Part shown: positions 2,701-28,563 of the stretch, one piece after another
Numbering within the stretch: the stretch's first letter is position 1
How the letters are laid out: each line of letters begins with the position of its first letter
Origin: Gammaproteobacteria bacterium
Lineage (GTDB): Bacteria > Pseudomonadota > Gammaproteobacteria > Steroidobacterales > UBA11654
Direction: 5' to 3'
Assembly (NCBI GenBank): GCA_029242945.1
Contig: JAQWSZ010000049.1
Location: 6,320-70,319, forward strand
Length of the DNA: 64,000 nucleotides
Notes under the pieces: model-generated
The model's database searches: none
The model's input: the letters and a program-made list of their open reading frames with translations, nothing else
What the model was told of the DNA's origin: nothing
Position numbers and translations under genes: made by a program

Positions 2701-2720
2701 CATTAAATTTATTAGTTTCT

Positions 2721-2740
2721 TATTTATCATTTGATTAATA
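2721..2740. promoter_or_regulatory. Putative operator, copy A of the TATTTATCA-NN-TGATAAATA palindrome
   Basis: tatttatcaTTtgattaata. Ends 58 nt upstream of the ATG of the BBE-like oxidase gene. Confidence 0.6.
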
Positions 2741-2797
2741 AGAAATTTAGTTTTATTATTACTCGATAATCCAATAGACAATGAGGATAATATTGAT

Positions 2798-4288
2798 ATG
2801 AAAAGAAGAGAATTTATTACTTCATCTACCGTTGCAGCTTCAACAATTCTTTTTCCTTCATGGAAGGGCTTTACTGCTGAAAGTCTAATTCCTTCAGAAT
2901 TATTGGCAATTAAAGGCAATAGAGAAAACTTCATAATAAAAGGAACAGATGTAGCAAACTTTAGGAATAGTCTTAAAGGTAAACTTCTTCTCAAAGATGA
3001 CTATGGCTATGAGGTAGCAAGGCTTGTTAGAAATAGAATTATTGATAAAAAACCTGCAATGATTGCACAGTGTGTGGATGAAAGTGATATACAAAAAGCT
3101 GTAAATTTTGCTAGAGATCATAGTTTATTAACAGCAGTAAAATGTGGTGGGCACAGTGTTTCAGGTAAAGGCACTTGTGACCAAGGTTTAATAATAGATT
3201 TATCACCTTTCAAAGGTTCTAGATTAGACAAAAAAAATAAAAGACTTTTCGTTAAGGGCGGCTCTTGGTTGGGTGAAGTTGATGCAGCTACCATTCCTCA
3301 TGGCCTGGGCACAACTGCTGGTACTGTTTCACATACCGGTGTAGGTGGCCTTGCAACAGGAGGTGGATTTGGCAGACTAGGAAGAAAATATGGTCTAACG
3401 ATTGATAACATCAAAAGTATTGAGATCATAAATGCAGATGGCGAACTGAGATATGCTGATGAAACACATAATCCAGATCTTTTATGGGCAGTTAAAGGTG
3501 GTGGCGGAAATTTTGGGATCGTAACTACATTTGAGTTTCAGCTTTACGAAATGAATAAGGATGTTATTGGTGGTCGAATCACATTTGACTTTTCAGATGT
3601 GAAACAGCTACTTAAATTTCATGGTGAACACTCTCTTGAATCATCAAACGAGATGTACCAAGATCCAGTCATTTTTGCACCTCCCGGCGGATTCGGCAAT
3701 ACAGTTTATTTTGATGTATGTTATTCAGGGCCACATAAAATGGCAGATAAAGCTTATGCGCCCCTAAGAAAAGCAGGAAAAGTAATACATGATGATATAG
3801 ACATTATTGATTACAGAGCTCTTCAGAAAAGTGGTGATGATAATGATCCGAGAGGACGATCTCAATATTTAAAAGGTGGTTTTACTAACGAAATCTCAGA
3901 TGGTTTGATTGACGCATTGGTAGGAAATTTAGAAGCCCATCCTGAAAGAGGCAGCATGGCATTCTTTCAGCAATCTGGTGGAAAAATAAATACAGTTGCG
4001 ACGGATGCAACAGCTTTTCCTCACAGATATGCACAGCAAAATTTAATTACAGGATCTTTCTGGCTGGAAGGAGTAGAGACAGCTCCACATATTGCCTGGT
4101 CAAGAAAATATTGGAAAAAAGTCTCTCCATATACAGATGGCTTTTATACAGTTGATGAATTTTCTGAAACTGCAGCAGAAGTGAATTCAAATTACCTAGG
4201 TAATTATGAAAAACTTGTAGAAATAAAGAATAAATATGATCCCACCAATTTATTCAGATTAAATGCAAATATCAAACCAACTGTTTAG
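2798..4288 (+). CDS. Tat-signal FAD-linked oxidase, PCMH/berberine-bridge-enzyme-like
   Basis: Twin-arginine motif MKRREFIT. FAD-binding segment AVKCGGHSVSGKG...GLIIDLS. C-terminal BBE-type tail NYLGNYEKLVEIKNKYDPTNLFRLNANIKP. Confidence 0.85.
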   Translation: MKRREFITSSTVAASTILFPSWKGFTAESLIPSELLAIKGNRENFIIKGTDVANFRNSLKGKLLLKDDYGYEVARLVRNRIIDKKPAMIAQCVDESDIQKAVNFARDHSLLTAVKCGGHSVSGKGTCDQGLIIDLSPFKGSRLDKKNKRLFVKGGSWLGEVDAATIPHGLGTTAGTVSHTGVGGLATGGGFGRLGRKYGLTIDNIKSIEIINADGELRYADETHNPDLLWAVKGGGGNFGIVTTFEFQLYEMNKDVIGGRITFDFSDVKQLLKFHGEHSLESSNEMYQDPVIFAPPGGFGNTVYFDVCYSGPHKMADKAYAPLRKAGKVIHDDIDIIDYRALQKSGDDNDPRGRSQYLKGGFTNEISDGLIDALVGNLEAHPERGSMAFFQQSGGKINTVATDATAFPHRYAQQNLITGSFWLEGVETAPHIAWSRKYWKKVSPYTDGFYTVDEFSETAAEVNSNYLGNYEKLVEIKNKYDPTNLFRLNANIKPTV

Positions 4289-4355
4289 TCTATAATTTAA
4301 ACCATAATTTAATTGAACCTTTGATATTAGGAGTAAAGGCAGAAATTAAAGTAAA

Positions 4356-5234
4356 TTAGGTTTGAGGCTCCCTCTGATCTTTGTAGGCTTGAAATGTACC
4401 TGTTCTTTTTTTCCAAGGTTTCTCTGATTCAAAGTAACCGGGTGATTCTTTTTCAATATAATTGATCAATACTGGAGGTACATCTTCCACTAAATTTTCA
4501 ACCTTCTTTCCAACAGCCTGCCAATAATGACCACCAGGTCTTTGTCCCATAAGAAAGAAAGGATACCAACTTGTATTATGAGTAGATGTTATTGTCATCG
4601 GAATACTATCTAGATCAGGATTGCTCAGATCAGATATTTTTCCATGATAGGTTTCAACATAAAGGAAGCTCAATTTATCTCCTGTGGATGCCTTTTTCCA
4701 AATCTTTGGATCAAGCTTATTCGCAAAATTTAAATAAGCAGGTTCTTCCAACCACAGTTCATCGCCTCTTGACTTGAATGGCCTTAAAGTGGGCTTGATA
4801 ACTCGATCAAATGGTCCACCAATAATCTTGACTGGTCGATTGATCTCACCTGTAAAAGGATTTTCAAATTCTTCAACTGGCCCTCCAGTCTCAAGATCCA
4901 TAAAATATCCACAATCATAAAGCGTGTAGTAGAAACTATTATCAAACCAAGGCTTCCAGACACCTTTCAAAACACCCGTATGTCCAATCATTGGCTTAAC
5001 ACCTTGCTCTGGTGTCATTCCAAATATGGTTCCTTTGTAGTAAATGTGCACCATACTCCTAGCAGAAGTGCCCACTAATTTAGCGTAAGCTAGAGCATTT
5101 TGTATTGGATCATTAAAATCAACCTTTTGATGAATAGAATGAAGTCCTTGTGCTGATACTAAATGCGGTGTAGCTGCTATAGCACCAATACCACCAATTA
5201 ATTCTCTTCTATTTATGTATTTTTTTATTGGCAT
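4356..5234 (-). CDS. Tat-signal protein of unknown function, paralog 1 of 3 in this window (possibly DUF1838-type; family name not verifiable here)
   Basis: NRRELIGGIGAIAATPHLVSA-QG is a Tat signal with an AxA-like cleavage site. Shares YAKLVGT...MVH...GTIF, WYPFF and YWQAVG blocks with 5239..6018, and more distantly with 27565..28554. Confidence 0.75.
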   Translation of the reverse strand: MPIKKYINRRELIGGIGAIAATPHLVSAQGLHSIHQKVDFNDPIQNALAYAKLVGTSARSMVHIYYKGTIFGMTPEQGVKPMIGHTGVLKGVWKPWFDNSFYYTLYDCGYFMDLETGGPVEEFENPFTGEINRPVKIIGGPFDRVIKPTLRPFKSRGDELWLEEPAYLNFANKLDPKIWKKASTGDKLSFLYVETYHGKISDLSNPDLDSIPMTITSTHNTSWYPFFLMGQRPGGHYWQAVGKKVENLVEDVPPVLINYIEKESPGYFESEKPWKKRTGTFQAYKDQREPQT

Positions 5235-5238
5235 TATA

Positions 5239-6018
5239 TTATTTACTGTTTTTTCTAAAATTCTTCAATGTACTTGTTGTTTCTGACCAAGGATTTGTTG
5301 ACTCAAAATAATTATCTGATTGTTGGTTTAAAAAATTCTTCATCGTCTCAGGGACATCCGACCAAGATTGTATTTTATTTCCTACTGCCTGCCAGTACAT
5401 ATTTCCATCGACGTCATCCATATCAAAGAATGGATACCATGGACTCAAATAATTATAGGTCATTATTGATGATGCTATGGTAGTTGAGTCATTCAACTCT
5501 GAGAGCTTTCCTTTAAAAATAACATTCGCAAATGAGGTCTGTTTTTTTTGTTCACCTGATTCTGAATTACCAAAGTATCCCTTTCTAGTTTTAGGTTCTT
5601 GAATCCATATATCATCCCCTGAAACAACCCAATCAAGTTGGTTCGGTTTAATAATAGACTCATAAGGTCCACCTTTTATATATGACAGTTGATTTTCTTT
5701 TTTTGTAATTGGATTTTGAAAAATCTCGATATGATTTTTAGAATCTAATGAATGAAAAAAACCAGATTCAAATAACGTATAGCGAAAAGAATCCTGCTCC
5801 AACTTTTCCCACACACCTTTTAAAATCGCCTGAAACCCTATAAATGGTATAGGCCCACCTGGTAAATATGCAAAAATCGTTCCTTCTAGACTGTAATGGA
5901 CCATTGCTTTATCAGCAGTACCTACAAGCTTTGCATAAGCATATGTGCTATCGATTGATTTACTTAAATCAAGTCTGTTTTTCGTATAGTTACCTGTTAA
6001 TAAATCTCTTCGATCCAT
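5239..6018 (-). CDS. Paralog 2 of the same unknown family; keeps an RR motif but lacks the hydrophobic signal core
   Basis: Starts MDRRDLLTGNYTKNRLDLSK, then aligns with paralog 1 (YAYAKLVGT, WYPFFDM, YWQAVGNK). Sits 4 nt downstream of... correction: its stop lies 4 nt upstream (in transcription order it precedes paralog 1). It starts only 9 nt after the upstream gene stop, so there is no room for a longer N-terminus. Confidence 0.75.
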   Translation of the reverse strand: MDRRDLLTGNYTKNRLDLSKSIDSTYAYAKLVGTADKAMVHYSLEGTIFAYLPGGPIPFIGFQAILKGVWEKLEQDSFRYTLFESGFFHSLDSKNHIEIFQNPITKKENQLSYIKGGPYESIIKPNQLDWVVSGDDIWIQEPKTRKGYFGNSESGEQKKQTSFANVIFKGKLSELNDSTTIASSIMTYNYLSPWYPFFDMDDVDGNMYWQAVGNKIQSWSDVPETMKNFLNQQSDNYFESTNPWSETTSTLKNFRKNSK

Positions 6019-6027
6019 TTTTTAATC

Positions 6028-6597
6028 CTAAAATTGACAATAATCCTCTTTTTCAACTAAATCAAAAACAAAGGTAAATTTGGCTACCCCTATAAGCACT
6101 GCCATAATCATTCCAAGCTCATAGAGTTCGCCATCATTAAAATCTGATTTTAATTTTTCATACAATGATTGATCTAATACACCTTTATTATTAGTTAGAA
6201 CCATTTGATCTGCTAGCTCTAATGCTCCTTTCTCTCTTGTGGTAAAAGGACCATTCTTATAATCATTCAATGAACTAATTTGCTCTTTTGTCACTCCAGA
6301 TTCTAGTGCATGGACGGTATCGCCTTTATTGCAAAATGCACAACCATGAACATTGGCTAATCTCAGTCTTACCAATTCTACCAAAGTTTTCTCAAAGCGA
6401 CCTGAATAGAAAAGCTTTTTATAAAAATCCTTAAAATACCACTCATAAACTTCAGGATTATTACCTGAAACTTCAACAAATGTTGCATCGCCTGTCAGCT
6501 CTACTGCCTGATCCCATCCCTGTTTCATATTGTCAGGTAAGTACTCTCGCTCTACCTTCTTTATCTGTGGTTGTGGTTTAGACATGATTATTCTCAT
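6028..6597 (-). CDS. Carboxymuconolactone decarboxylase/AhpD-like family protein
   Basis: About 190-aa helical protein with an HGCAFC (CxxC-type) motif, characteristic of the CMD/AhpD fold. The start may instead be the internal Met (MSKPQ) 4 codons downstream. Confidence 0.6.
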   Translation of the reverse strand: MRIIMSKPQPQIKKVEREYLPDNMKQGWDQAVELTGDATFVEVSGNNPEVYEWYFKDFYKKLFYSGRFEKTLVELVRLRLANVHGCAFCNKGDTVHALESGVTKEQISSLNDYKNGPFTTREKGALELADQMVLTNNKGVLDQSLYEKLKSDFNDGELYELGMIMAVLIGVAKFTFVFDLVEKEDYCQF

Positions 6598-6639
6598 TGA
6601 TTATGAAATCTAACCTTATAACAACAACCTTCATAATGT

Positions 6640-7512
6640 CTACGATGCTTTTCTATTATTTTTTAACATCTCTTCAGTTTGAGGCTTCATTGGTTTATTA
6701 AAATGATGAATAACATCTTGAGTTAAACCTTTTCTATTGAGTGTATAGAGATGGAAGTTATCAATCCCTTCCTTTTGTAAATTTTCAATTTGATCAATAG
6801 CAATGCTCTGCCCTAGCTCTTGGATACCCAATGCATCATTATCACTGATTGCGTCATATTTTTGTTGTAGTGATTGTGGAATGTTTGCACCACATACTGC
6901 TGCAAATTTTTTAACTTTCTCAAAGTCGCTTATCGGTAATATACCAGCTGAGATAGGGGTATCTATGCCGAAAGCACTAACATTATCTCGATACATCAAA
7001 AAATCTTTATTGCTGAAGAACCATTGTGTAATTATCTCATCTATACCTATGAGGCATTTTTCTTTCAAATAGCCCATGTCCTTTTCTAGACTAACTGACT
7101 CAGGATGACCCTCTGGGTATCCTGCAGTCAATAATCGAAAATTGAATTGATCTGAAAGAGCTTGGGTAAACTCTTTAGCATCAGTATATCTATCCAGATC
7201 ATCATGATTCTTAGAATCTCCTCTTAAAGCTACCACTGACTCTAATCCTAGATTGTGATAATCATGAGCCATTGAGAGGATATCGTCTTTTGAATATTTA
7301 GCGCAAGTCATATGAGGTATAACTGGTGTATTAATTCTTGATGTGATTTCTTCTGCCATTTCTAATGTGTTGTTATGTCCTTCAACATTGAAACTATGCG
7401 TGATACTCATATACTTCGGCTGATACATAGACATACTCTCAGCTTGAGCAATAAGATCAAGCTTTTCGGATTCCACTTGAGGTGGAAAGTATTCAAGAGA
7501 GAATGAGACCAT
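6640..7512 (-). CDS. metF: Methylenetetrahydrofolate reductase homolog
   Basis: 290 aa. N-terminal FSLEYFPP and the PHMTC and ALRGD blocks are typical of MetF/MTHFR. First gene of a minus-strand operon with the CMD-like gene and paralogs 2 and 1. Confidence 0.7.
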   Translation of the reverse strand: MVSFSLEYFPPQVESEKLDLIAQAESMSMYQPKYMSITHSFNVEGHNNTLEMAEEITSRINTPVIPHMTCAKYSKDDILSMAHDYHNLGLESVVALRGDSKNHDDLDRYTDAKEFTQALSDQFNFRLLTAGYPEGHPESVSLEKDMGYLKEKCLIGIDEIITQWFFSNKDFLMYRDNVSAFGIDTPISAGILPISDFEKVKKFAAVCGANIPQSLQQKYDAISDNDALGIQELGQSIAIDQIENLQKEGIDNFHLYTLNRKGLTQDVIHHFNKPMKPQTEEMLKNNRKAS

Positions 7513-7524
7513 ATAATTATTTAC

Positions 7525-7544
7525 TATTTATCATTTGATAAATA
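7525..7544. promoter_or_regulatory. Putative operator, copy B1 (perfect 9-2-9 inverted repeat)
   Basis: tatttatcaTTtgataaata, in the 88-nt divergent region between the metF-like operon and the acetoacetyl-CoA synthetase operon. Confidence 0.65.
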
Positions 7545-7564
7545 AGCATTATAATATCTCTCTT

Positions 7565-7584
7565 TAATTTATCAACTGATTAAC
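7565..7584. promoter_or_regulatory. Putative operator, copy B2 (weaker)
   Basis: taatttatcaACtgattaac, in the same divergent region 40 nt from B1. Core ATTTATCA-NN-TGATTAA. Confidence 0.45.
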
Positions 7585-7600
7585 ACATACTTTATTCAAT

Positions 7601-9547
7601 ATGTCAGAACAACCTCATTTAAATTGGCAACCTAACAATCAGGATACAACTCTACTCTCTGAATTTATTTATTATCTAGAGAAGAATAAAGATCTCAGTT
7701 TTGATGACTATGAGCAATTGCATTCTTGGTCAATCAATCAAGCTGAAGAGTTTTGGAGTTCTTTTGCAAAATACTCCAATATAAATTTTACAACTGCACC
7801 TATAACAACACTGAATAAAGCTGACCATATCATGAATGATGAATGGTTCTCAGGCGCATCATTAAACTTTGCCCATCACCTACTCCAAAGGCAAGACAAT
7901 CAAGCCGCTATTATCTATCGAGATGAAACAGGAAAACGAATGGAGATGAGTCATCAAGAACTTTATAGCTCTGTCGCTAATTTATCTGGTTCACTCAAAG
8001 AAATGGGTGTCAAAAAAGGCGATGTGGTTGCTGCAGTGATGACTAATAGACCTGAGACAGTAGTAGCTATGCTCGCTACTTCTAGCATCGGTGCTATATG
8101 GACTTCTTGCTCTCCTGATTTTGGTACAGAGGGGGTTATTGATCGTATTGGTCAGGTTAAACCTAAAATATTATTCACCACTGATGGCTACCAATATGGA
8201 GGAAAGCATTTTGACCTGACTGAGAATATATTAACTCTTGAAAAGAAGCTGGATAGCCTGAATAAAATTATCTTAATTCACGAAAAAGAATCCAAAGAGA
8301 TCGGGCAATTGGTCAATACAATTAACTATGAGGAATGTCTACTTGAAGAACATAATCTAGAATTTGTATCGTTGCCTTTTAACCACCCACTTTTCATAAT
8401 GTATTCCTCTGGAACAACAGGGAAACCAAAATGCATAATACATGGTGCTGGAGGAACTCTTCTGCAACATCTAAAAGAACATCGCTTGCATACAAATATA
8501 AGAAAAAATGATCGTGTTTTCTTTTTTACTACTTGTGGTTGGATGATGTGGAATTGGTTAATCAGCGCATTAGCCAGTGAAGCAACCATCATACTTTATG
8601 AAGGCTCTCCACTCTATCCAGATACTAATCATTTATGGAGCATTGCTGAAGAAGAAAAAATTAATGTCTTTGGTATCAGCCCTGGATACTTAAGTTCGCT
8701 AATGAATCAAGAGCATAAACCAAAAAATTATAATAATTTAAGTGCTATTAATACTATTTTATCCACTGGATCTCCTTTGCTAATGGATCATTTCGAATAC
8801 ATTAATAACTCTGTAAAAGATGATGTGCAAATTTCAAGCATTTCTGGTGGAACCGATATTATTTCATGTTTTGCTTTAGGCAATGCAAATCAACCAGTAT
8901 ATAAAGGAGAAATTCAGTCAATAGGATTAGGTATGGCTGTCAAAGTTTTTGATGATTTAGGAAAGGAAGTGAAAAAAGATGAGAAAGGTGAGTTAGTATG
9001 CACCCAATCCTTTCCCTCCATGCCAATAGGATTCTTTGGTGACCCTAAAAAAGAAAAATACAAGGATACTTATTTTGATAAATATAATAATGTTTGGGCG
9101 CATGGAGATTATGCCACAATCACTAAAAATAATGGTCTCATTATCTTTGGTAGATCAGACACGACACTCAACGCTGGTGGGGTAAGAATTGGTACTGCTG
9201 AAATTTATAGACAATTGGAAAAATTCCCTACTATACTCCAATCGGTTGTCATTGATGAGATCGATGGCAATAACTCTTTTGTATCTCTTTTTGTAGTTCT
9301 AAAAGAAGGTGTATTTTTGACTCAAGACTTAATCAATAAGATAAAAAAAGAGCTTAAGCTAAAAGCAAGCCCTAGACATGTTCCTAAAAAAATAACATCT
9401 GTTCCTGATATTCCAAAGACAAGAAGTGGAAAGATTTCAGAACTATCAGTGAAAGCAGCAATTAATGGAAATGTAATAAAAAATATAGAGGCTCTTGATA
9501 ATCCTCATTCTTTAGATTTTTATAGAAAAATTAGGAAACAAAACTGA
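7601..9547 (+). CDS. Acetoacetate-CoA ligase (acetoacetyl-CoA synthetase) family
   Basis: 648 aa. AMP-binding motif YSSGTTGKPKCIIHGAGG. Length and C-terminal PKTRSGKI are typical of acetoacetyl-CoA synthetases. Confidence 0.8.
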   Translation: MSEQPHLNWQPNNQDTTLLSEFIYYLEKNKDLSFDDYEQLHSWSINQAEEFWSSFAKYSNINFTTAPITTLNKADHIMNDEWFSGASLNFAHHLLQRQDNQAAIIYRDETGKRMEMSHQELYSSVANLSGSLKEMGVKKGDVVAAVMTNRPETVVAMLATSSIGAIWTSCSPDFGTEGVIDRIGQVKPKILFTTDGYQYGGKHFDLTENILTLEKKLDSLNKIILIHEKESKEIGQLVNTINYEECLLEEHNLEFVSLPFNHPLFIMYSSGTTGKPKCIIHGAGGTLLQHLKEHRLHTNIRKNDRVFFFTTCGWMMWNWLISALASEATIILYEGSPLYPDTNHLWSIAEEEKINVFGISPGYLSSLMNQEHKPKNYNNLSAINTILSTGSPLLMDHFEYINNSVKDDVQISSISGGTDIISCFALGNANQPVYKGEIQSIGLGMAVKVFDDLGKEVKKDEKGELVCTQSFPSMPIGFFGDPKKEKYKDTYFDKYNNVWAHGDYATITKNNGLIIFGRSDTTLNAGGVRIGTAEIYRQLEKFPTILQSVVIDEIDGNNSFVSLFVVLKEGVFLTQDLINKIKKELKLKASPRHVPKKITSVPDIPKTRSGKISELSVKAAINGNVIKNIEALDNPHSLDFYRKIRKQN

Positions 9548-9586
9548 CATAAAATGAAATGAATTTAATAGTAAAATAAAGATAAT

Positions 9587-10633
9587 ATGACAAAAAAAAT
9601 AACAGTAAACGATACATTAGACTATCCATACTCAAAAAGACCTCCCAATGGAGAAGTGCTAGAAGTATCACCAAACCTCTATTGGTTAAGAATGCCACTA
9701 CCAATAGCTCTCAATCATATTAATTTATGGCTTTTAGAAGGTAAAAATGGATGGACCATTATTGATAGTGGAATGGCAAATGATGAATCCAAGGACATTT
9801 GGATTAATCTATTTGAAACGATTTTCAAAGGTAAAGCTTTAGAAGATCTCCTAATTACTCATATGCATCTGGATCATTCAGGTTTAGCAGGATGGCTTTC
9901 TGATTACTGGGAAGTGGATCCACATTTCACAGAAAAAGAATATCAAGAAACCCAATTATTAAGCAAAGGCATAGAAAAATCACAAGAATTTATTGCACTG
10001 GATTTCTATAAGAGTTGTGGCTATGACGATGCATCCATCAAACGTTATTTGGAAAGAGTCACATACAGAAAAACACTGGTGACCCCAATTAATAGGAATT
10101 ACAAAAAAATAAAAAATAATGAAATTATTACTCTTGGTGATAATGAGTGGGAAGTGGTTATTGCTAATGGGCATTCTCCAGAGCATGCTTGCTTATACTC
10201 CAAAGAAAATAATATCTTTATTTGTGGAGATGTCATCTTACCCAGAATTACACCTAATATTAGTGTTAGACCTTTCCATGCCGATAGCAATCCACTTGAT
10301 GATTGGATAAACAGTCTAAAAAATATCAAAAAAAGAATTCCAGATGATGCATTGATACTACCATCTCATGGTTACCCTTATTATGGCGCTCATAAAAGAA
10401 TTGATTCAATCATTGAAGATCATATGGAGAAGCTTGAAAGTCTGTATGCATTTTGTAATCAGTCAAAGAATGTCATTGAAGTTTTTCCTGCATTATTCGC
10501 AAATAAAATTAATGAAAATGCTCTCATATTGGCTGTGGGAGAGAGCCTTGCACATTTAAATTATTTAATTGGTGAAGGCAGAATGGAAATGAAAAAAAAT
10601 AATGATGGCATCAATTATTATAAAAGTATTTGA
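9587..10633 (+). CDS. MBL-fold metallo-hydrolase
   Basis: HxHxDH motif (ITHMHLDHSG) plus a later GHSPEH segment. 348 aa. Confidence 0.8.
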   Translation: MTKKITVNDTLDYPYSKRPPNGEVLEVSPNLYWLRMPLPIALNHINLWLLEGKNGWTIIDSGMANDESKDIWINLFETIFKGKALEDLLITHMHLDHSGLAGWLSDYWEVDPHFTEKEYQETQLLSKGIEKSQEFIALDFYKSCGYDDASIKRYLERVTYRKTLVTPINRNYKKIKNNEIITLGDNEWEVVIANGHSPEHACLYSKENNIFICGDVILPRITPNISVRPFHADSNPLDDWINSLKNIKKRIPDDALILPSHGYPYYGAHKRIDSIIEDHMEKLESLYAFCNQSKNVIEVFPALFANKINENALILAVGESLAHLNYLIGEGRMEMKKNNDGINYYKSI

Positions 10634-10646
10634 TTAGGGGTAAGTA

Positions 10647-12041: not shown

Positions 12042-12086
12042 AGCTCTTAAATCATAAATAATAGGAGTATATATATAACAAATCAC

Positions 12087-12106
12087 TATTTATCATATGA
12101 TAAATT
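12087..12106. promoter_or_regulatory. Putative operator, copy C
   Basis: tatttatcaTAtgataaatt. The 18-nt core ATTTATCATATGATAAAT is a perfect palindrome. Ends 35 nt upstream of the CoA-transferase ATG. Confidence 0.65.
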
Positions 12107-12140
12107 AATGATATATTAACCGGATTTACACGGAGACATC

Positions 12141-14432: not shown

Positions 14433-14452
14433 AATATAAATATGGTGATAAT

Positions 14453-15235: not shown

Positions 15236-15277
15236 TTTTCAATATAGAATTCAATACAAGATAAGAGAGACGAGATA

Positions 15278-16420: not shown

Positions 16421-16435
16421 TCAAAGGAAAGATAT

Positions 16436-17755: not shown

Positions 17756-17783
17756 TAGATAATATTTAGCCCAAAGGAATCCA

Positions 17784-19223: not shown

Positions 19224-19228
19224 GATAA

Positions 19229-19891: not shown

Positions 19892-19895
19892 TTGT

Positions 19896-21632
19896 TCACT
19901 TCTTAGGAATAATAGGTACTAAAAGATAAGGAGCCTGATCTGGATTAAATTGAATTGTTGTTTTCCCATCAAAAGTAGCATTTCTGTCTAATGGATCATT
20001 ATGCAGAAAGGGTCCGCATCCAGTGAGTTGATTTTTAAAATTAGATAAAGTTTGATTCTCAGCTAAAGGATATTCATAGTCTTTACCTTGTATGGATAAA
20101 ACTAAATAATAATTTTCTGGTATTACTATAGATGTTGGCCATATTTCGATATCCATCTCTACAGTTTCATTCGGCTCCAAAGGCCATGATTCATCGTGTG
20201 TATGAAAAGGTCTCCAAGGTTTAGACTCCACTCGATCTAATTTTCGATGGGAAGCTCTAAGCCAGCCTTGTGCAATAGGAGTATTAGGGTCCACAGCCCC
20301 CTGGTAAACAATTTCATTATCTGTAGGCCCAAATAAACGAAGCACTACAAAGATATCAGCATCGTTAGTTGAAGAAGAGACAAATATTTTTAGTGCCAGT
20401 GGTCCTGTAATCTCAGTTTCTTTTTTGAATGGTTCTGAACGAAAATCAATCCCTTCTCCCATTGCATTGAAAACTAAACTATTTGACTCTTTTTCTTCAT
20501 ATTCTGCTGATATTTTTTTATCTGAACTTAAATATAATTTCTTCCACTGAGTTCTTTCAATGGGCCACTGCTCTTCATTTCTTTGCTGAAAACCATTCAA
20601 ATGCCTAACCTGTAATTGAACTTTTGGTTGATTAACCCAATCATTATTCTCGCCTTTAAGAAAATGACCAAAAAATCTTTTTTGTAATTTAACCCCATAG
20701 TCAGTATAAAATTCAGTCCAATGCTCTAACCCATGAATTTCAAGCCATTTCTGATTGGATGCTGCTCTTAAATAACCTTCAGTATTTCCTCTTAAATGAA
20801 GTCCTTGCCCACCCCAATTGGCTGCTGACAAAAGAGGAACTTTGATATTCTCCCAAACTGCTGATCGCTCATGATGATAATCATCTTCCAATGGATGATC
20901 TCTAATTTCATCACCAAACTGACATCTATTTAAAATCAATTCTTCTTCTGTTAGTGTTTCATTTCCACAAATTAATTCGCCAGTTAACTCGTTTCTAGGT
21001 CCATTTTCACCTAAGCCATATTGAACTGTTTTTACTTGCATATCGAACCAATTAGCCCAAAAAGTACTCAAAATACCACCGTGGTGTGTCATGTCTCTGT
21101 ACCAGTCGCTTGCCCCTTCCCAAATACAAATCGCCTCTAAATACTTAGGCTGTTTTGAAGCCACCAGCCATTGATTGATACCAAAATAGGAAACACCATT
21201 TAGACCTACTTTTCCATTACTCCATTCCTGTTCGCCTGCCCATTCAATGCAATTGGAGAAATCCAATGTTTCTCTAGGTGAAAAGTGATCAACATAGCCT
21301 GGAGAACAACCACAGCCCCTAGAATCAACTCTGATACAAATATAACCATCAGGTACCCATTTCTCGGGATCCACAACTTCCCAGTTTTGATACTTATTGG
21401 TTGAACCATGAGTGACATCAGGATGTTTCTCTGCCATTCTATCCCAAGCACTAGGATAACCTTGCTGAAAAGGAAGGCCTTTTGCATAAGGGCCATAAGT
21501 CATTAAGACAGGATATTGTCCAGTTCCGATAGGTCTAAAAATATCTGCTCGTAATATTAAACCATCGTCCATCTTAATTGGATGATTCCATTCAATTTGC
21601 ATACCATCTCTTATTTCTGATTTCTGCTTCAT
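19896..21632 (-). CDS. CocE/NonD-family hydrolase (S15 X-Pro dipeptidyl-peptidase/acyl esterase type)
   Basis: 578 aa. Blocks YPVLMTYGPY and DSRG, the nucleophile elbow GVSYFG, and a long C-terminal beta domain. Confidence 0.8.
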   Translation of the reverse strand: MKQKSEIRDGMQIEWNHPIKMDDGLILRADIFRPIGTGQYPVLMTYGPYAKGLPFQQGYPSAWDRMAEKHPDVTHGSTNKYQNWEVVDPEKWVPDGYICIRVDSRGCGCSPGYVDHFSPRETLDFSNCIEWAGEQEWSNGKVGLNGVSYFGINQWLVASKQPKYLEAICIWEGASDWYRDMTHHGGILSTFWANWFDMQVKTVQYGLGENGPRNELTGELICGNETLTEEELILNRCQFGDEIRDHPLEDDYHHERSAVWENIKVPLLSAANWGGQGLHLRGNTEGYLRAASNQKWLEIHGLEHWTEFYTDYGVKLQKRFFGHFLKGENNDWVNQPKVQLQVRHLNGFQQRNEEQWPIERTQWKKLYLSSDKKISAEYEEKESNSLVFNAMGEGIDFRSEPFKKETEITGPLALKIFVSSSTNDADIFVVLRLFGPTDNEIVYQGAVDPNTPIAQGWLRASHRKLDRVESKPWRPFHTHDESWPLEPNETVEMDIEIWPTSIVIPENYYLVLSIQGKDYEYPLAENQTLSNFKNQLTGCGPFLHNDPLDRNATFDGKTTIQFNPDQAPYLLVPIIPKK

Positions 21633-21635
21633 TTA

Positions 21636-22529
21636 CTATTTGCCTTTTTTTGATTTTAATTTATTGTTTAAATAATTCACTACAGCCACAGCATCTTTAT
21701 CTCCCATATTACCCTTTTCAATAGCTTCAGAATAACTTCTCAATGTGGATGCTGTTGTCGGTAAATCAAGATCTAAGGTTTGTGCTGTAGCCAATATAGA
21801 ATTTATATCTTTTTCCATGCTTTTCATATCAAAAGCCACAGGAAGATCAACTCCTAAAATGGTGGGTATTTTCATAGATAGCACTGCTAATGCTGCAGAA
21901 CTATCAGCAATAGCATCAAGCATTAAATCTTCATCCAACCCCCCTGATGCTCCTAAACTGATTGCTTCTGCAAGGGACTGCCAGTAAACCGCTAAAGGTA
22001 AATTTACAACAAGCTTTAATAAAGCACCAGAACCAACATCACCAGCATGGATAATTCTTCTAGAGAGAATTTCTAACAATGGTCTTACCCGCTCGATCAC
22101 TGCAGCTTCCCCACCACAGAAAAACATTAATTTGCCTTCGGCGGCAGGAGCAACTGTCCCAGATACAGGGGCATCTATGAAATCAGCTCCTTGCTTAATG
22201 GCTGCGTTGGAGAGTATTTTTACTGTTTCAACTTGCAAAGTACTCATATCGATAAATATTTTTCCTTCTACATTAGTACTTAGCAAACCTTTGTCATCAA
22301 AAAAAACAGATTGTATGGCTTTATCATTGCTGAGCATGGTGAAAATAAATTCCGAAGAATCACATGCCTCTTGTGGAGTTGATGCTAAATGAGCACCGTC
22401 ATCAACCAAAGCGATGGTCTTTTTTGCATTACGATTATATACAGTAAGCTGATGACCTGCTTGTAGAAATAAAGGAGCCATCACTATACCCATTTTACCC
22501 AAACCAAGAAAACTAATTGTTTTTTTCAT
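21636..22529 (-). CDS. NAD(P)-dependent oxidoreductase, 3-hydroxyisobutyrate dehydrogenase-like
   Basis: ISFLGLGKMGIVMA Rossmann motif, then DAPVSG and GSGALLKLVVN blocks. Confidence 0.85.
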   Translation of the reverse strand: MKKTISFLGLGKMGIVMAPLFLQAGHQLTVYNRNAKKTIALVDDGAHLASTPQEACDSSEFIFTMLSNDKAIQSVFFDDKGLLSTNVEGKIFIDMSTLQVETVKILSNAAIKQGADFIDAPVSGTVAPAAEGKLMFFCGGEAAVIERVRPLLEILSRRIIHAGDVGSGALLKLVVNLPLAVYWQSLAEAISLGASGGLDEDLMLDAIADSSAALAVLSMKIPTILGVDLPVAFDMKSMEKDINSILATAQTLDLDLPTTASTLRSYSEAIEKGNMGDKDAVAVVNYLNNKLKSKKGK

Positions 22530-22544
22530 GATAATTTAAAGGTA

Positions 22545-23858
22545 TTAATTACTATCTGGCACATAAGCTATCAAATCCAATGAAGTATTAGCTCCTTCAA
22601 TGCCTAATGAATGATTCAATCCAATTGTGGTTGATGCAGGTTTATCATCAGGAAAATAACTTGCCCAAGCTTCTATAGATTCAGCAAACCACTGCAGATC
22701 GTTATGAAAACACGCACGTCTTACAATATTTTCAACCGTTGTTCCAGCGGCCTCAGAAATTGCATTAATATTCTCCATCATATACCTCATTTGCATCTGA
22801 GCAGGTCTTCCATACCATGGTGCTGCTGGATTCCTAATCATTCCTTCTGCTATTTTACCACTATTATCAAAAGCCATTTGAGTACTAAAAAACAATAAAT
22901 TTCCAACTTTTACAGCTTGTGATTCATGTCCCATAGGAATTGGAGCATTGGAGGTCTCAATAATGTCTTTCTGCAACTTACTATCATTACTCAATAGTAT
23001 CAATGAGGCTTCAACTTTAATGTCATTTGCATTCATACCTGAATGAGGAAGAACAAATCGAGCAGGAGGATTATTAGGAAACCATTTTTTCCATATCTTA
23101 TCAACAACCGCAAAATCCCTTGTATCGCCAATAAATAATTCTGCTTTAATCGCTTGATCTAAACTGCTACCCGTTTTTTCTGCGATTTTTAATAGTTTTT
23201 CCATCAAACACTCTGTTTGATCCTCAATTGATACAGAAGAAGTATCTTTACTCATTCCATTCTGATTACTAATAAAAATCCAGTCTCCTTTTCTAACAGC
23301 ATCTGTTTGCGCTGAAGCATTTTCTAATCCATCAGCTTCCAATGAATAATAAGTGGAATTGCCTTGATTGGTTAGACAAATAACCTCTAATTCAATCTGT
23401 GTACCAACCCACATTAGTTCACCAATTCCTATAGAAGATCTTGGAGGTAAATAATCTTTAAAATTATTATTCATAGATGACTCATATGGTCTAATATCTA
23501 ATTGATGATGGTTATCACCCAATAAAAAATCGTTCTGATTGGGACGATCCGATACAAACCACTCCCATAGTTTAACCGTATCATTTTTCATATTACAGCC
23601 AGCTGCTTGTAGTGTTTGAGCCATATTTCTAAATACAAACTCAGATTGAAGTTCCAAACCACTGATTCCATTTTTACTATTTGGAATGACTTCTTTTGGA
23701 AGGCCAGTTTTGAAATCACTGGCCAATTGACCAGCGACGAAAATCCAATCCCCCACCTTAATTGCAGGACTATAGGGCATAACTGGCTTAGGCACTCCGT
23801 CTTCCAATCCAGGCCAAATAGCTATTGGTTTTGTTATTTCTTTTGATTTATCACTCAT
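22545..23858 (-). CDS. Triple-domain RidA/YjgF-family protein (three RidA-like modules in one 437-aa chain)
   Basis: Three consecutive modules of about 110-140 aa. Each begins (V/I)(K/R)xGDWIF / VKVGNLLFFS and ends with a beta-strand (IELEVICL; VEASLILL; LDLIAYV), as in single-domain RidA. Confidence 0.75.
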   Translation of the reverse strand: MSDKSKEITKPIAIWPGLEDGVPKPVMPYSPAIKVGDWIFVAGQLASDFKTGLPKEVIPNSKNGISGLELQSEFVFRNMAQTLQAAGCNMKNDTVKLWEWFVSDRPNQNDFLLGDNHHQLDIRPYESSMNNNFKDYLPPRSSIGIGELMWVGTQIELEVICLTNQGNSTYYSLEADGLENASAQTDAVRKGDWIFISNQNGMSKDTSSVSIEDQTECLMEKLLKIAEKTGSSLDQAIKAELFIGDTRDFAVVDKIWKKWFPNNPPARFVLPHSGMNANDIKVEASLILLSNDSKLQKDIIETSNAPIPMGHESQAVKVGNLLFFSTQMAFDNSGKIAEGMIRNPAAPWYGRPAQMQMRYMMENINAISEAAGTTVENIVRRACFHNDLQWFAESIEAWASYFPDDKPASTTIGLNHSLGIEGANTSLDLIAYVPDSN

Positions 23859-23943
23859 TAATTCACCATTGATAATTCATTGCCATAAAGATATTACACA
23901 ATATTAAACAATGTTAATTGTTAAATTCCTCAAGATATAATAC

Positions 23944-23963
23944 TATTTATCAATTGATCAATA
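23944..23963. promoter_or_regulatory. Putative operator, copy D
   Basis: tatttatcaATtgatcaata, in the 131-nt divergent region between the triple-RidA operon and the LLM operon. Confidence 0.55.
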
Positions 23964-23989
23964 AATAAACTTCTCTAAAAATATAAAAA

Positions 23990-25066
23990 ATGAAATTATC
24001 ACTTTTTACAATGCCCTTGCATCCACCAGATAGAAACTACACAGAAGTTCTACGAGAAGACAGAGAAGCTATCATTCTGGCAGATCAATTGGGATTTGAA
24101 GAAGCTTTTATAGGAGAGCATGTCACTGATAAAGCAGAAGCAGTTACTTCCTGTCTTATATTCATTGCTAGCTTAATAAATGCCACAAAAACAATTAAAC
24201 TTGGCAGTGGAACTGTCAATCTTCCCAGTACTCACCCAGCAGCAGTAGCAGCTCAAGTTTCGATGATAGATAATATGTTGGAAGGTAGATTTATCTTTGG
24301 TATTAGCCCAGGTGGCCTTTTATCAGATGCTGAAATATTTGGAAATTTAGATAAAGACAGAACCGAGATGTTTGTTGAATCAATCAATCACATCTTAGAT
24401 ATTTGGGACAAAGAGGCTCCATATAACCTAGAAGGTAAATATTGGAATATTACAACTGAAAAAAACCTCGATAAAGAGACAGGACAAGGCATTATAGTGT
24501 CGCCTTTTCAAAAACCTCATCCACCTATTGTTGTTACTGTGGTAGCGCCTTTCTCAAAAGGAGTGGTAGCAGCTGCTCAAAGAGGATGGACTCCTATTTC
24601 AGCGAATTTCCTTCAACCAATATGGGTGGCTTCTCATTGGCCTATGTATCAAAAAGGTTGTGAACTGGGTGGTTATGAAGCAAAAACTGAAGATTGGAAG
24701 GTAGCTAAAAGTATTTTCGTAGCCGACGATGAAAAAACTGCTCAGCGCTATGGTAAAGGACCTGATGGCCCTTATCATTTTTATTTTAAACAAATAATGA
24801 AGAAACTAATTGGGAATGGTAGACCTGATTTATTTAAACATGACAGAGAGATGTCTGACTCAGATGTGACCCTTGACTATGTTCTTGACTCATTGGTAAT
24901 TGCAGGCACAGTAGATAGCGTCGTTGAACAAATTGAATCCTTTAGAGAAATTACTGGTGATTTTGGCACTCTTGTTTATGCAGCTCACGATTGGGTTGAA
25001 CCCGAACTTTCAAAAAGATCTATGGAGTTGATGTCAAAGGAAGTTATGCCTAAACTCAATCAATAA
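23990..25066 (+). CDS. LLM-class (luciferase-like) flavin-dependent monooxygenase/oxidoreductase
   Basis: 358 aa. MKLSLFTMPLHPP start, then EEAFIGEH and GRFIFGISPG blocks typical of LLM enzymes (LimB-like subgroup by eye). Confidence 0.8.
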   Translation: MKLSLFTMPLHPPDRNYTEVLREDREAIILADQLGFEEAFIGEHVTDKAEAVTSCLIFIASLINATKTIKLGSGTVNLPSTHPAAVAAQVSMIDNMLEGRFIFGISPGGLLSDAEIFGNLDKDRTEMFVESINHILDIWDKEAPYNLEGKYWNITTEKNLDKETGQGIIVSPFQKPHPPIVVTVVAPFSKGVVAAAQRGWTPISANFLQPIWVASHWPMYQKGCELGGYEAKTEDWKVAKSIFVADDEKTAQRYGKGPDGPYHFYFKQIMKKLIGNGRPDLFKHDREMSDSDVTLDYVLDSLVIAGTVDSVVEQIESFREITGDFGTLVYAAHDWVEPELSKRSMELMSKEVMPKLNQ

Positions 25067-25097
25067 GATTGAAACTAAAAGAATTAGGCTCACTATC

Positions 25098-26003
25098 ATG
25101 CAAGATACATCTTTTAAAATCGGAGTTGTTGGTTTAGGTATTATTGGATCTGCAATTTCAAAACACTTACTTTCAAGCAATAATCAAGTTATTGGTTTTG
25201 ATATTGATCAAACAAAATCTATTAAAAACAATGGAAAACAACTGAGTATTTGTTCAAGCCTCGAAGAGTTGTTGAATAGTTGTGAGGTCATTATAACTTG
25301 TTTACCAAGCGAAAAATCACTCAGCGATACTATTGATCAACTAGTTTCTATGAATATTTCAACAGTGAAAACTATCGTAGAAATGAGCACTCTTAGTATT
25401 GCTTGTAAGACTAAAAACAAAGAAAAATTAAACTCTTTGAGTACTTATTTATTAGATTGTCCGATTAGCGGAACAGGAGAACAAGCCTCTCAAGCTGATA
25501 TTGTGATTTATGCTAGTGGTAATGAACAAAACTATAAAGAAATTGAATCAATTTTTAGCTCTTTTTCTAAAGACTGCTTTTTTGTAGGAGACTTTGGTAA
25601 CGGTAGTAAAATTAAACTAATAGCGAATTTTTTAGTATCTATACATAACGTAGCATCTGCTGAAGCTATTTTATTGGCTGAACAAACTGGCATCAATCTT
25701 GATCAAATATTCGAAGTGATCTCCTCAGGTGCTGGTACTTCTAAGATATTTGAACTGCGAGCACCCATGATGATGAAAAGAGAATACAAACCAGCAACCA
25801 TGAAAATGAATGTCTGGAAAAAAGACATGGCTTTAATCAGAGAATTTATCAATCTTTATAATATTCCTACTCCTTTGTTTTCTGCCACAGAAGAACTTTA
25901 TAAGTCAGCCTCAGAGAAAGGCTTAGAGGATGAAGATACAGCAGCTGTTTACGAAATTTTACAAAGCATTAATCAAAAAACAGGAGATAAAAGTGACTCA
26001 TGA
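25098..26003 (+). CDS. NAD(P)-dependent oxidoreductase, 3-hydroxyisobutyrate dehydrogenase-like (second copy)
   Basis: IGVVGLGIIGSAIS Rossmann motif, then DCPISG and GNGSKIKLIAN blocks. Confidence 0.85.
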   Translation: MQDTSFKIGVVGLGIIGSAISKHLLSSNNQVIGFDIDQTKSIKNNGKQLSICSSLEELLNSCEVIITCLPSEKSLSDTIDQLVSMNISTVKTIVEMSTLSIACKTKNKEKLNSLSTYLLDCPISGTGEQASQADIVIYASGNEQNYKEIESIFSSFSKDCFFVGDFGNGSKIKLIANFLVSIHNVASAEAILLAEQTGINLDQIFEVISSGAGTSKIFELRAPMMMKREYKPATMKMNVWKKDMALIREFINLYNIPTPLFSATEELYKSASEKGLEDEDTAAVYEILQSINQKTGDKSDS

Positions 26004-26757
26004 AATTGATTTCCACATTCGTGGTAATGGTCAGCCAACTGTTTTTATTCATTCATTAGGACTTGATCATAAGTTATGGGACTTTTGTATCGAAGAATTA
26101 TCAGCAACATCTAAAACATTATCATATGACTTACCAGGTCATGGAAATAATCCCCCGCCAAGTCACTCATATGAAATAAAAAATCTCTCAAATGATCTTG
26201 TTGAGTCTCTGAAAAGACATGGCATAGTAAAAGCTAACTTTGTAGGTTTATCAATTGGTGGGATGATTGCTCAACATTTGGCTGCTAACAATCCTGAAAT
26301 AGTTGAAAAACTTGTTTTAATAGACACCACACCAACGTACTCTGAAGAATGGAAAAAAAATTGGGCAGAAAGAGCAAGTATTGCAAGAACTAGAGGTGTT
26401 AAGGTTATGCGGGAAAAGCTCTTAGAAGCATTCTTTACTACTGATTTTTTAACACAAGATTCTGCTGAAATTGAATATTGCAGATCAGCAATCAATTCTA
26501 TCTCAGCTGAAGGGTATGCACTAGCCTGTGAAGCATTAGCTTTAGGTGAAATGGAAAAATATGCTCCCTTGATAGTTGCCAATACATTAATTATGTGTGG
26601 TGATCAGGATAATATTCTGTTCAAGGAGGCAGTACATTGGTTTAATGAAAATATTCAAAATACAAAGGTAGAGTGGCTATCTCCTGCACAACATGTATCA
26701 CCACTTGAGTGTCAAAAAGATTTTATAATGCATTTAAAAAAGTTTTTAGAACTATAA
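25993..26757 (+). CDS. Alpha/beta hydrolase (3-oxoadipate enol-lactonase-like)
   Basis: I place the start at GTG 25993, with AGGAG 7 nt upstream and an 11-nt overlap with the preceding stop, rather than the ORF-track ATG at 25930. Canonical VFIHSLG oxyanion segment and GLSIGG nucleophile elbow. Confidence 0.8.
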   Translation: MTHEIDFHIRGNGQPTVFIHSLGLDHKLWDFCIEELSATSKTLSYDLPGHGNNPPPSHSYEIKNLSNDLVESLKRHGIVKANFVGLSIGGMIAQHLAANNPEIVEKLVLIDTTPTYSEEWKKNWAERASIARTRGVKVMREKLLEAFFTTDFLTQDSAEIEYCRSAINSISAEGYALACEALALGEMEKYAPLIVANTLIMCGDQDNILFKEAVHWFNENIQNTKVEWLSPAQHVSPLECQKDFIMHLKKFLEL

Positions 26758-26760
26758 ACC

Positions 26761-27450
26761 CTACAAATCTAATTCTTTTACACTAATAGCTTTTGCGCCT
26801 TCAAGCATTACTCTTACAGAACTAGTAACTATTGCCTCATAGTCAGCTAATACATTTGAATGATAGATATTTTTTCTCACAGCATAATAGAATAAACCGC
26901 CATGCATCACCCACAATCTCTCTAATTCAAGAGGAGTAATTGGTACTTTCTTTACATCAGGTAAATTACACTCCACTCTAATTTCTCCACATATTGGTTT
27001 TAAAAACTCATCCTCTGCTAACCTGATATACCTTCTATTAAGAGGCTTACCCATTAAACCCGAGAAAAAATATATTCTTATCCACTCATAACGATGAACT
27101 GTTGTGGCATATGAAAGATAAAAATCAACCAACCTTTGATCTAGTGGTACAGACCTATCCTTAATTTTTAGAGACCATTCAGGATTAATCCAATTTAAAA
27201 AAACTTCTTTATAGACGCGTTCTATTAGATCTTCTTTATTAGGAAAATATCGATATAAAAGTGGTTGAGTAATACCAATGCGTTTTGCTAAGTCTCTTGT
27301 TTTTCCTTCAAAGCCAACCTCAGCAAAAAACTGTACAGCTTCTTCAATTATTTCTTTCTCGCGGTCACTAGGTGTTAGTCTTTTCTTTGAGTTTGACTTT
27401 GGCTTTGTTTTTAATTTTAAATTTGTTTTTGGCATTCTATTTTTATCCAA
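26761..27450 (-). CDS. TetR/AcrR-family transcriptional regulator
   Basis: Lys-rich N-terminal tail, then the HTH segment EEAVQFFAEVGFEGKTRDLAKRIGITQPLLYRYFPNKEDL. It is the only regulator gene in the accessory half. Confidence 0.9.
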   Translation of the reverse strand: MDKNRMPKTNLKLKTKPKSNSKKRLTPSDREKEIIEEAVQFFAEVGFEGKTRDLAKRIGITQPLLYRYFPNKEDLIERVYKEVFLNWINPEWSLKIKDRSVPLDQRLVDFYLSYATTVHRYEWIRIYFFSGLMGKPLNRRYIRLAEDEFLKPICGEIRVECNLPDVKKVPITPLELERLWVMHGGLFYYAVRKNIYHSNVLADYEAIVTSSVRVMLEGAKAISVKELDL

Positions 27451-28554: not shown

Positions 28555-28563
28555 TTTTTTCCC

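Follow-up and report, generated by a model that had tools for sequence, protein, structure and literature searches.

KstR of Mycobacterium and Rhodococcus governs the cholesterol regulon with one TetR repressor and one short palindrome, TnnAACnnGTTnnA, which stands before many catabolic operons; many KstR sites lie in divergent spacers. RutR (Escherichia coli YcdC, pyrimidine catabolism), CamR (camphor, CAM plasmid of Pseudomonas putida) and the LuxR/HapR/SmcR/OpaR proteins of quorum sensing in Vibrionaceae are other relevant members of the TetR family. Here, we analyzed a 64,000-nt stretch of an uncultured gammaproteobacterium (assembly GCA_029242945.1, contig JAQWSZ010000049.1, positions 6,320 to 70,319; "the window" below), in which a 20-bp palindrome, or box, recurs five times within an island of catabolic-type genes. 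Our comparative analysis indicated that the five palindromes are very probably the operators of a TetR-family repressor encoded in the same window at 26761-27435. This pair of regulator and site is undescribed so far, and the type of switch is ordinary for bacteria, with no new regulatory principle. In the searchable literature we found neither the operator core sequence nor a description of the regulator. A literature search on TetR proteins with a TTATCA palindrome gave nothing relevant, and one on the island's enzyme combination gave only noise.

By analogy, the scale and logic of the system would be those of KstR. However, KstR has another motif, is autoregulated and actinobacterial, and has a known substrate, whereas the tetR gene of the window lacks a box, and the kinship of the two proteins is shown at the family level only.

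The original prediction had compared the half-sites of the box with those of RutR. The RutR consensus is TTGACCAnnTGGTCAA, of which positions 4 and 13 were called the most important (PMC2475637). This confirmed the part of the comparison that concerned geometry, which is the same in both, namely a 16-bp 7-2-7 inverted repeat centred on CA-NN-TG. The letters agree less well, since the RutR consensus and the form found in the clade of the window, TTTATCAnnTGATAAA, have 10 of 14 specified positions in common (4 and 13 included). RutR also has the TetR fold and is a neighbour of the model of the window TetR (4jyk, TM 0.56-0.62), and its gene set is functionally parallel, with a luciferase-like monooxygenase (LLM), a RidA-family protein, an alpha/beta-hydrolase, a reductase or dehydrogenase and a transporter. 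However, RutR has many intragenic sites and activates carAB, whereas the sites in the window are all at promoters. Orthology to RutR was rejected, because the model TIGR03613 gave 26.5 bits against a cut-off of 368 and matched the N-terminal domain only, and the structural alignment had 19% identity. Linkage to rut genes was rejected as well, with no RutA model among the 22 NCBIfam matches of the LLM and 76 bits for RidA against the RutC cut-off of 169. Thus, the window TetR is not RutR.

Apart from matches confined to the helix-turn-helix (HTH) domain, the best matches of the window TetR are the LuxR/HapR/SmcR/OpaR proteins (8zf3 and 8zf2, E 6e-9 to 2e-8, residues 10-130), which also hold Foldseek ranks 1 and 3 for its model, at an identity of only 18-20%. 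LuxR-type sites likewise contain TGATAAA/TTTATCA words, but they are 20-22 bp long and their half-sites face the other way, in the arrangement TATTGATAAA...TTTATCAATA. The LuxR-type proteins differ also in being global regulators without a local catabolic regulon controlled by a small molecule. CamR is alike by analogy, as a TetR repressor in overlapping divergent promoters. Its pathway uses diketocamphane (Baeyer-Villiger) monooxygenases dependent on flavin mononucleotide (FMN), and these are the closest solved relatives of the island LLM, at moderate identity (3,6-diketocamphane 1,6-monooxygenase, 4uwm, 2e-34). Unlike the camphor pathway, the island includes nitrogen-related enzymes (RidA and a TRZ/ATZ amidohydrolase). 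With a TetR-fold regulator, a short inverted repeat and the co-occurrence of operator and regulator, the system appears to be of the TetR-family repressor/operator type, although autoregulation was not found.

The palindrome and its positions

The whole window was searched with the pattern TATTTATCANNTGATAAATA at up to three mismatches, and exactly five matches were found, the number that had been predicted. The form of the box in this lineage is TATTTATCA-NN-TGATAAATA, a 20-bp 9-2-9 palindrome. The family core of the operator is TTATCAnnTGATAA (TTATCA-NN-TGATAA), a 7-2-7 inverted repeat whose outer flanks are weaker and W-rich. Intergenic DNA makes up just 2599 nt of this very compact window, and all five boxes fall in it. 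At the same threshold, shuffling of the whole window gave 0.31 expected sites, and AT-matched, dinucleotide-preserving shuffles of the intergenic DNA gave a mean of 0.04, none of 2000 shuffles reaching five. The sites are therefore non-random. There is no site with four mismatches in the window, and the next best ones, at five mismatches, are all inside coding sequence. An unsupervised repeat search recovered the four strong copies as a 24-nt family (D2) with no longer flanks in common. Two details noticed earlier hold: the 5' flank AC is common to boxes B1, C and D, and the window search found no copy in the housekeeping half (35.6-64 kb) or in the MFS/PON divergent spacer. The distance from box centre to nearest start codon had been given as 37-68 nt and was measured as 22-67 nt; the MTHFR-like gene starts 22 nt from the centre of B1, and the acetoacetyl-CoA synthetase gene 25 nt from that of B2.

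Conservation was followed in two metagenome contigs with the left half of the island (L091 and L092), which came from a scan with the MTHFR-like protein and encode proteins 67-95% identical to those of the window. Boxes A, B1, B2 and C were found in both at orthologous positions, A and C as islands of identity in diverged spacers. Box A (TATTTATCATTTGATTAATA, 2721-2740, one mismatch) is the putative operator before the BBE-like FAD oxidase gene (2798-4288), and its right half overlaps a predicted -35 element, TTGATT, at 2731-2736. Nineteen of its 20 columns are invariant, against 35 of 85 (41%) in the remaining spacer, and its asymmetry, TGATTAATA, is kept in both contigs, as are the deviations of B2 as a whole. 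A candidate second box in this spacer (2756, TTATTACTCGATAA) was rejected, as it is not conserved in L091. Box C (TATTTATCATATGATAAATT, 12087-12106, one mismatch) would serve the operon that runs from the CoA-transferase to the amidohydrolase (12141-19223). Its left half is the predicted -35 element TTATCA (12090-12095), with a TG-extended -10 element at 12112-12117; 18 of the 20 columns are invariant, against 51 of 90 (57%) in the remaining spacer.

A contig of a closely related strain (L093), found via the cupin sequence, is 94% identical to the window over a 4.2-kb overlap and reaches 8.3 kb further left. Its region 220-259 includes a box before a second BBE-oxidase paralogue, and has a 30-nt extended palindrome, TTTCTTATTTATCAtTTGATtAATAAGAAA, in common with the region of box A (window 2711-2750), the flanks being identical too. 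Gene and operator may have been duplicated as one piece.

The 88-nt spacer B holds two boxes and two interleaved divergent predicted promoters with a common palindromic -10 element, ATTATAAT (7548-7555). Box B1 (7525-7544) is the perfect 9-2-9 copy, with no mismatch to the pattern, as had been stated; box B2 (AATTTATCAACTGATTAACA, three mismatches) lies at 7566-7585, one position to the right of the register first given (7565-7584). B1 falls on the predicted -35 element of the synthetase promoter (plus strand, -35 TTATCA 7528-7533, -10 TATAAT 7550-7555) and on the +1 region of the MTHFR-like promoter. B2 falls on the predicted -35 element of the latter (minus strand, -35 TTGATA 7575-7570, -10 TATAAT 7553-7548, 11/12 matches) and on the +1 region of the former. 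The centres of the two boxes are 41 bp apart, about four helical turns, and 40-41 bp apart in L091 and L092; box pairs at 41-42 bp occur also in the alphaproteobacterial loci L084 and L090. Overall, the spacer is 95% identical in L091 and L092, far more than the proteins of the MTHFR-like and synthetase genes on either side (70-73%).

Box D (TATTTATCAATTGATCAATA, 23944-23963, one mismatch) is the putative operator in the divergent spacer between the LLM and RidA operons. It begins 3 nt past the predicted TATAAT of the LLM promoter (23936-23941) and covers the predicted +1 region. It is kept in L009 and in L011-L017, with two core mismatches in L015; the TetR proteins of L011-L017 are 71-89% identical to that of the window. 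All five window boxes have counterparts at orthologous positions in diverged relatives. On the other side of the spacer, the predicted RidA promoter (-35 23917-23912, -10 23893-23888) is 27 nt from box D, the centre of which is about 72 nt upstream of the predicted RidA transcription start. Two more blocks conserved in this spacer in L011-L017 coincide with predicted promoter hexamers. The block GTTAATTGTTAA (23911-23922), conserved in the same loci, is probably the overlapping -35 region of both divergent promoters, and could be the site of a second factor. A candidate second box near the RidA start (23862) was rejected as a half-site only that is not conserved.

Association of the palindrome with the TetR clade

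The regulator gene (26761-27435, minus strand) encodes 224 aa with a TetR_N domain (PF00440, 52 bits against a cut-off of 24), and its product is the proposed repressor. The TTG at 27450 that had been taken as its start is too far upstream, and the true start is the ATG at 27435: the protein read from this ATG had exact matches on 18 contigs, and an exact-sequence look-up of the TTG version had none. The AlphaFold model is all-helical, with 10-11 helices (pLDDT 80, pTM 0.72), and its Foldseek matches are all TetR proteins, the neighbours (SmcR/HapR, BkaR, FadR, RutR and CecR) having 15-21% identity. PDB and NCBIfam profile matches are limited to the HTH domain, and none is close among solved structures or curated families. 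Plasmid homologues in cultured Bosea, Sphingobium and Rhizobium, at 42-48% identity, are annotated merely as "TetR/AcrR family". As the original prediction had it, this is the sole classical regulator in the island, and a scan of 51 of the 59 open reading frames (ORFs) in the window gave one other DNA-binding protein, MraZ of the dcw cluster. The ORFs outside the Pfam scan are in the second half (36589-38373, 42206-43369, 45302-48028, 49440-50669, 53243-54433 and 54426-55583; further 55612-56691, 56754-58442 and the 59667-60800 region).

We collected 80 genome loci with TetR orthologues at 47-89% identity and 37-70% GC, from metagenome-assembled genomes of marine gammaproteobacteria, Porticoccaceae, Stellaceae/Rhodospirillales, Rhizobiaceae and others. 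Nearly all of them have the TTATCA-NN-TGATAA core at one to three sites, genomes of 65-70% GC included. A distant subset comprised 71 loci (1.09 Mb) of alpha- and gammaproteobacteria, with TetR 47-60% identical and 42-70% GC. Here, 52 perfect TTATCAnnTGATAA cores occurred in 47 loci, against 0.0 in block shuffles, and 87 sites with at most one mismatch, against 0.8 in shuffles. The distance between the box and the tetR start takes one of several distinct ranges, consistent with operons. At 50-150 nt (17 loci), the box is directly upstream of tetR; classes at about 1.3, 3.0 and 2.37 kb correspond to box-LLM-tetR, box-LLM-CocE-tetR and box-MFS-DUF1838-tetR operons, respectively. In the GC-rich Stellaceae, a conserved -35-like element, cTTGc, precedes the box by 11-12 nt, and the ribosome-binding site follows immediately. 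No other regulator gene is conserved in the orthologue loci. Such a pattern is what comparative genomics normally shows for a regulator and its cognate operator, and it rules out a random AT-rich motif, a site of Fur type and a repetitive element.

Most orthologues have exactly the same recognition helix, TQPLLYRYFP, and the remaining box carriers have it nearly unchanged. Orthologues with QPLIF or QPLLF in place of QPLLY (L081, L082, L083 and L088) have no canonical box, and L082 and L085 have box variants of the TTATCG...CGATAA type. From these sequences, the recognition helix may co-vary with the innermost operator base. By analogy with other TetR proteins, the N-terminal tail, MPKTNLKLKTKPKSNSKKR, which is rich in Lys, could reach the outer W-rich flanks via the minor groove. 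A 44%-identical homologue on the Sphingobium sp. TKS plasmid pTK3 (L097), beside CocE/NonD and AMP-binding genes and among the plasmids of sphingomonads that degrade hexachlorocyclohexane, lacks a TTATCA box. A palindrome like the RutR consensus, TTGACCAGCCGGTCA, stands there at about 8900-8915, about 40 nt upstream of the start of the homologue, and this site hints at a continuum of operators between this TetR clade and RutR-type sites.

The tetR gene itself appears to be under different control in the window lineage. In L013-L015 and L017, a box overlaps the MFS_1 start, which makes an autoregulated MFS-DUF1838-tetR operon, and most of the distant loci also have a tetR-linked box. In the window, the MFS_1 and DUF1838 genes upstream of tetR (27565-29901, minus strand) have no such box: none was found at up to three core mismatches before tetR or the MFS-DUF1838-tetR operon (27451-27564 and 29902-29987), nor in L011 and L012. 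In these three genomes, the gap before tetR is widened to 114 nt and contains a conserved promoter-like block. With the box lost at the MFS_1 start and the gap so widened, the lineage seems to have given up autoregulation and switched to independent expression of tetR.

Proposed repression and the alternatives

We infer from these sequences that the TetR protein binds the boxes, that it represses rather than activates, and that it responds to an inducer from the pathway whose chemistry is discussed below. A TetR dimer would set its two HTH domains on the two half-sites. The boxes are at the predicted -35 element (A and C), at the -35 element and +1 region (B1 and B2) or in the +1 region (D, for the LLM operon), and because they overlap these elements, the bound repressor would exclude RNA polymerase by steric repression. 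Binding of a substrate or intermediate of the pathway to the C-terminal domain would take the repressor off the DNA, so that the whole island would be induced together.

Several points weigh against this reading. All the evidence is computational, and it covers 72 kb of the lineage, so that a paralogous regulator with the same helix, or sites elsewhere, are possible. The tetR gene lacks an autoregulatory box in the window, L011 and L012, unlike most relatives. Promoter predictions in spacers of 17-24% GC are no commoner than in shuffles. The core promoter predicted for the RidA operon does not include box D and lies 27 nt beyond it; control of this operon is thus the least certain link. The three additional boxes described below come from the 94%-identical strain, which is another genome than that of the window.

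A factor encoded elsewhere, global or Fur-like and of the TGATAA/TTATCA type, might bind the boxes, the nearby TetR being a coincidence. TGATAA and TTATCA words do occur in Fur and LuxR/HapR-type sites, and no box stands before tetR in the window. However, the half-sites face the opposite way in the 7-1-7 Fur and in the LuxR sites, and neither the 19-bp Fur consensus (GATAATGATAATCATTATC) nor the 7-1-7 TGATAATnATTATCA repeat has a match in the window at up to three mismatches, so that a Fur box was rejected. The box tracks tetR orthologues over two proteobacterial classes and 42-70% GC, often 50-150 nt upstream of the gene, in loci where no other regulator is conserved; we therefore regard another factor as improbable. 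Still less probable is that the palindromes are mere promoter architecture (-35-like hexamers or UP-like AT-rich DNA) or remnants of repetitive extragenic palindromic (REP) or miniature inverted-repeat transposable (MITE) elements, with no dedicated factor. It is true that predicted -35 hexamers fall on the half-sites (TTATCA, TTGATA and TTGATT), and that box A lies in a 30-nt extended palindrome duplicated before a paralogous gene. However, the dyad is conserved in both halves, even as the sole AT-rich element in genomes of 65-70% GC, and no copy stands before the housekeeping promoters at 36-64 kb. Flanks in common end at about 24 nt, and the copies keep orthologous positions at promoters in diverged genomes and across classes together with tetR, so that a REP/MITE-type element was rejected.

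The idea that the palindromes act as RNA or DNA hairpins (terminators, attenuators or structures of the 5' untranslated region) rather than protein sites draws on boxes A, B1 and C, which fold better than shuffles (-10.2, -5.4 and -6.0 kcal/mol; z-scores -5.0, -3.5 and -2.3), and on the position of A and C downstream of a co-directional gene. B2 and D, on the contrary, do not fold (-1.1 and -1.3 kcal/mol; z-scores -1.3 and 0.0), so that hairpin formation fails to explain the set. The stems are all A-U with loops of 2-4 nt, no terminator-like site was found, there are no compensatory changes, the TTATCA/TGATAA letters being identical in all taxa, and the B and D boxes lie in divergent spacers, upstream of both transcripts. 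A hairpin role was rejected for the set as a whole, and we give it the least chance of these explanations. The last alternative accepts binding of TetR to the boxes, and makes it an activator or dual regulator at some of them, for example at the RidA operon, where box D lies near -72, upstream of the predicted core promoter. Activators exist in this family, RutR (at carAB; PMC2475637) and LuxR/HapR among them. At the other promoters, however, the boxes overlap predicted -35 or +1 elements, the classical position of a repressor. Most TetR-family proteins are repressors. Activation at some boxes is thus unlikely, though it has a better chance than the three explanations without TetR, and operators of a TetR repressor are the reading that we follow below.

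Extent of the probable regulon and possible function of the island

L093 has three further boxes left of the window's edge. One of them, a copy of TATTTATCATATGATAAATT at 7580-7599 (window -677, about 670 nt to the left), has an MBL-fold gene (603 aa) on one side and an NmrA-like gene on the other; L092 has the equivalent box at 18146. The NmrA-like operon behind it runs into the first two genes of the window (145-2700, plus strand), a FAD_binding_2 flavoprotein and a DUF4437 cupin, which as its distal genes are probable further members of the regulon. An exact-sequence look-up of this flavoprotein gave no match. The other two boxes lie between a TonB-dependent receptor and the second BBE-oxidase/UbiD operon. 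Thus, the regulon is larger than the window, and by sequence it appears to span about 35 kb, with at least eight boxes and some 10 transcription units. No regulon box was found within the adjacent 28 kb of housekeeping genes.

The original prediction placed six transcription units in one regulon. Our results support this, with the RidA unit the least certain, and extend the regulon past the left edge of the window. The identities that it gave to the genes agree with Pfam and NCBIfam. Behind box A is the monocistronic BBE-like FAD-linked oxidase (2798-4288, plus strand; Pfam FAD_binding_4 and BBE). Upstream of the next two units are B1 and B2, which they face from both sides: an MTHFR-like gene, a CMD-family gene and two DUF1838 genes (4356-7512, minus strand), whose order is kept in L091 and L092, and an acetoacetate-CoA ligase (NF002937, 883 bits), an MBL-fold hydrolase and a FAD_binding_2 flavoprotein (7601-12041, plus strand). 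Box C precedes a double family-III CoA-transferase, an alpha/beta-hydrolase, an acyl-CoA dehydrogenase, an MFS_2 transporter and a TRZ/ATZ-type amidohydrolase (12141-19223, plus strand). The LLM, a HIBADH-like dehydrogenase and an alpha/beta-hydrolase (23990-26757, plus strand) have box D at the predicted +1. The sixth unit, whose control is less certain, has a triple RidA, a HIBADH-like dehydrogenase, a CocE/NonD hydrolase and a racemase (19229-23858, minus strand). Two of these proteins are unusual fusions conserved in relatives, the triple RidA/YjgF tandem-domain protein (437 aa, 22545-23858, minus strand) and the double CoA-transferase (763 aa, 12141-14432, plus strand). The hydrolase of the LLM operon is called as 254 aa in relatives, its mechanical ORF start being too far upstream, and its 74-nt overlap with the preceding dehydrogenase (25930-26003) is therefore an artefact.

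It had also been claimed that these unrelated-looking enzymes belong together, and many of them do co-localise with tetR orthologues in other lineages. Among the 80 loci, a HIBADH-like dehydrogenase travels with tetR in 54, a CocE/NonD hydrolase in 39, an LLM in 32, a triple RidA in 24 and a TRZ/ATZ-type amidohydrolase in 22. MBL, DUF1838, cupin and BBE oxidase genes co-occur as well, and some lineages have two HIBADH-like dehydrogenases. RidA-operon genes are directly behind or beside a box in Porticoccaceae-type loci, L021, L024 and L037. Porticoccaceae bacterium nBUS_09 (CP179212) is a relative in culture that has the module. In more distant members of the clade, molybdenum hydroxylase subunits, TRAP transporters, a 2-oxoglutarate oxygenase and an M24/creatinase-like enzyme are under putative control.

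In the Stellaceae locus L049, the first box is common to a divergent Liv-type ABC transporter (3550-6752), and a second box precedes a flavin reductase gene (12375-12947). By this arrangement, the LLM should belong to the two-component FMN monooxygenases. The island in the window showed no flavin reductase.

We infer that the island, roughly 35 kb long and catabolic, encodes the uptake and breakdown of an organic compound. Its genes are of the types flavin monooxygenase (two-component-type, Baeyer-Villiger-like), ester, lactone and amide hydrolases, dehydrogenases, RidA deaminases, CoA ligase, CoA transferase, acyl-CoA dehydrogenase and transporters. This suggests that an alicyclic or N-heterocyclic compound undergoes oxygenative ring opening and is then hydrolysed, oxidised and broken down in a CoA-dependent manner. 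No substrate could be named from the Pfam, NCBIfam and PDB neighbours of the island proteins, and DUF1838 appeared in the searched literature only in Streptomyces biosynthetic clusters.

Taken together, the TetR clade defined by TQPLLYRYFP and TTATCA-NN-TGATAA can be read, tentatively and with slightly less than even confidence, as a widespread and undescribed pathway-specific master repressor of a conserved catabolic module that has expanded in this lineage. Its hosts may be marine gammaproteobacteria, Porticoccaceae, Stellaceae/Rhodospirillales and others, and the module may consist of a two-component LLM of the Baeyer-Villiger type with its flavin reductase, a CocE/NonD hydrolase, HIBADH-like dehydrogenases, RidA and an amidohydrolase, with transporters that are interchangeable. 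In the streamlined marine lineage, it may have grown to at least eight operators and about 10 units over about 35 kb, a TonB-dependent receptor included. Half-sites may have been co-opted as -35 hexamers, with autoregulation lost. The inducer may be an abundant dissolved organic compound, possibly alicyclic/lactone-forming or N-heterocyclic. Such a repressor would open a large conserved catabolic island of uncultured, streamlined marine bacteria to testing through its regulation, as one protein and one 20-bp site would predict which roughly 35 genes act together. The TetR protein could be used as bait for the substrate, in ligand screening or as a biosensor, and the operator model could trace the regulon in hundreds of genomes of sea and soil.

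The housekeeping half of the window (36500-64000) contains aspS, UbiA, DUF502, rluD-like, bamD/YfiO, sucD, coaE, zapD, NUDIX and lpxC genes, the dcw cluster (mraZ, rsmH, ftsL ... murB, ddl, ftsQ), rsmI, a GST gene and cytochrome c1. A bacterial class A RNase P RNA at 61381-61716 (minus strand, 320 bits) fills the 446-nt gap between mraZ and rsmI.

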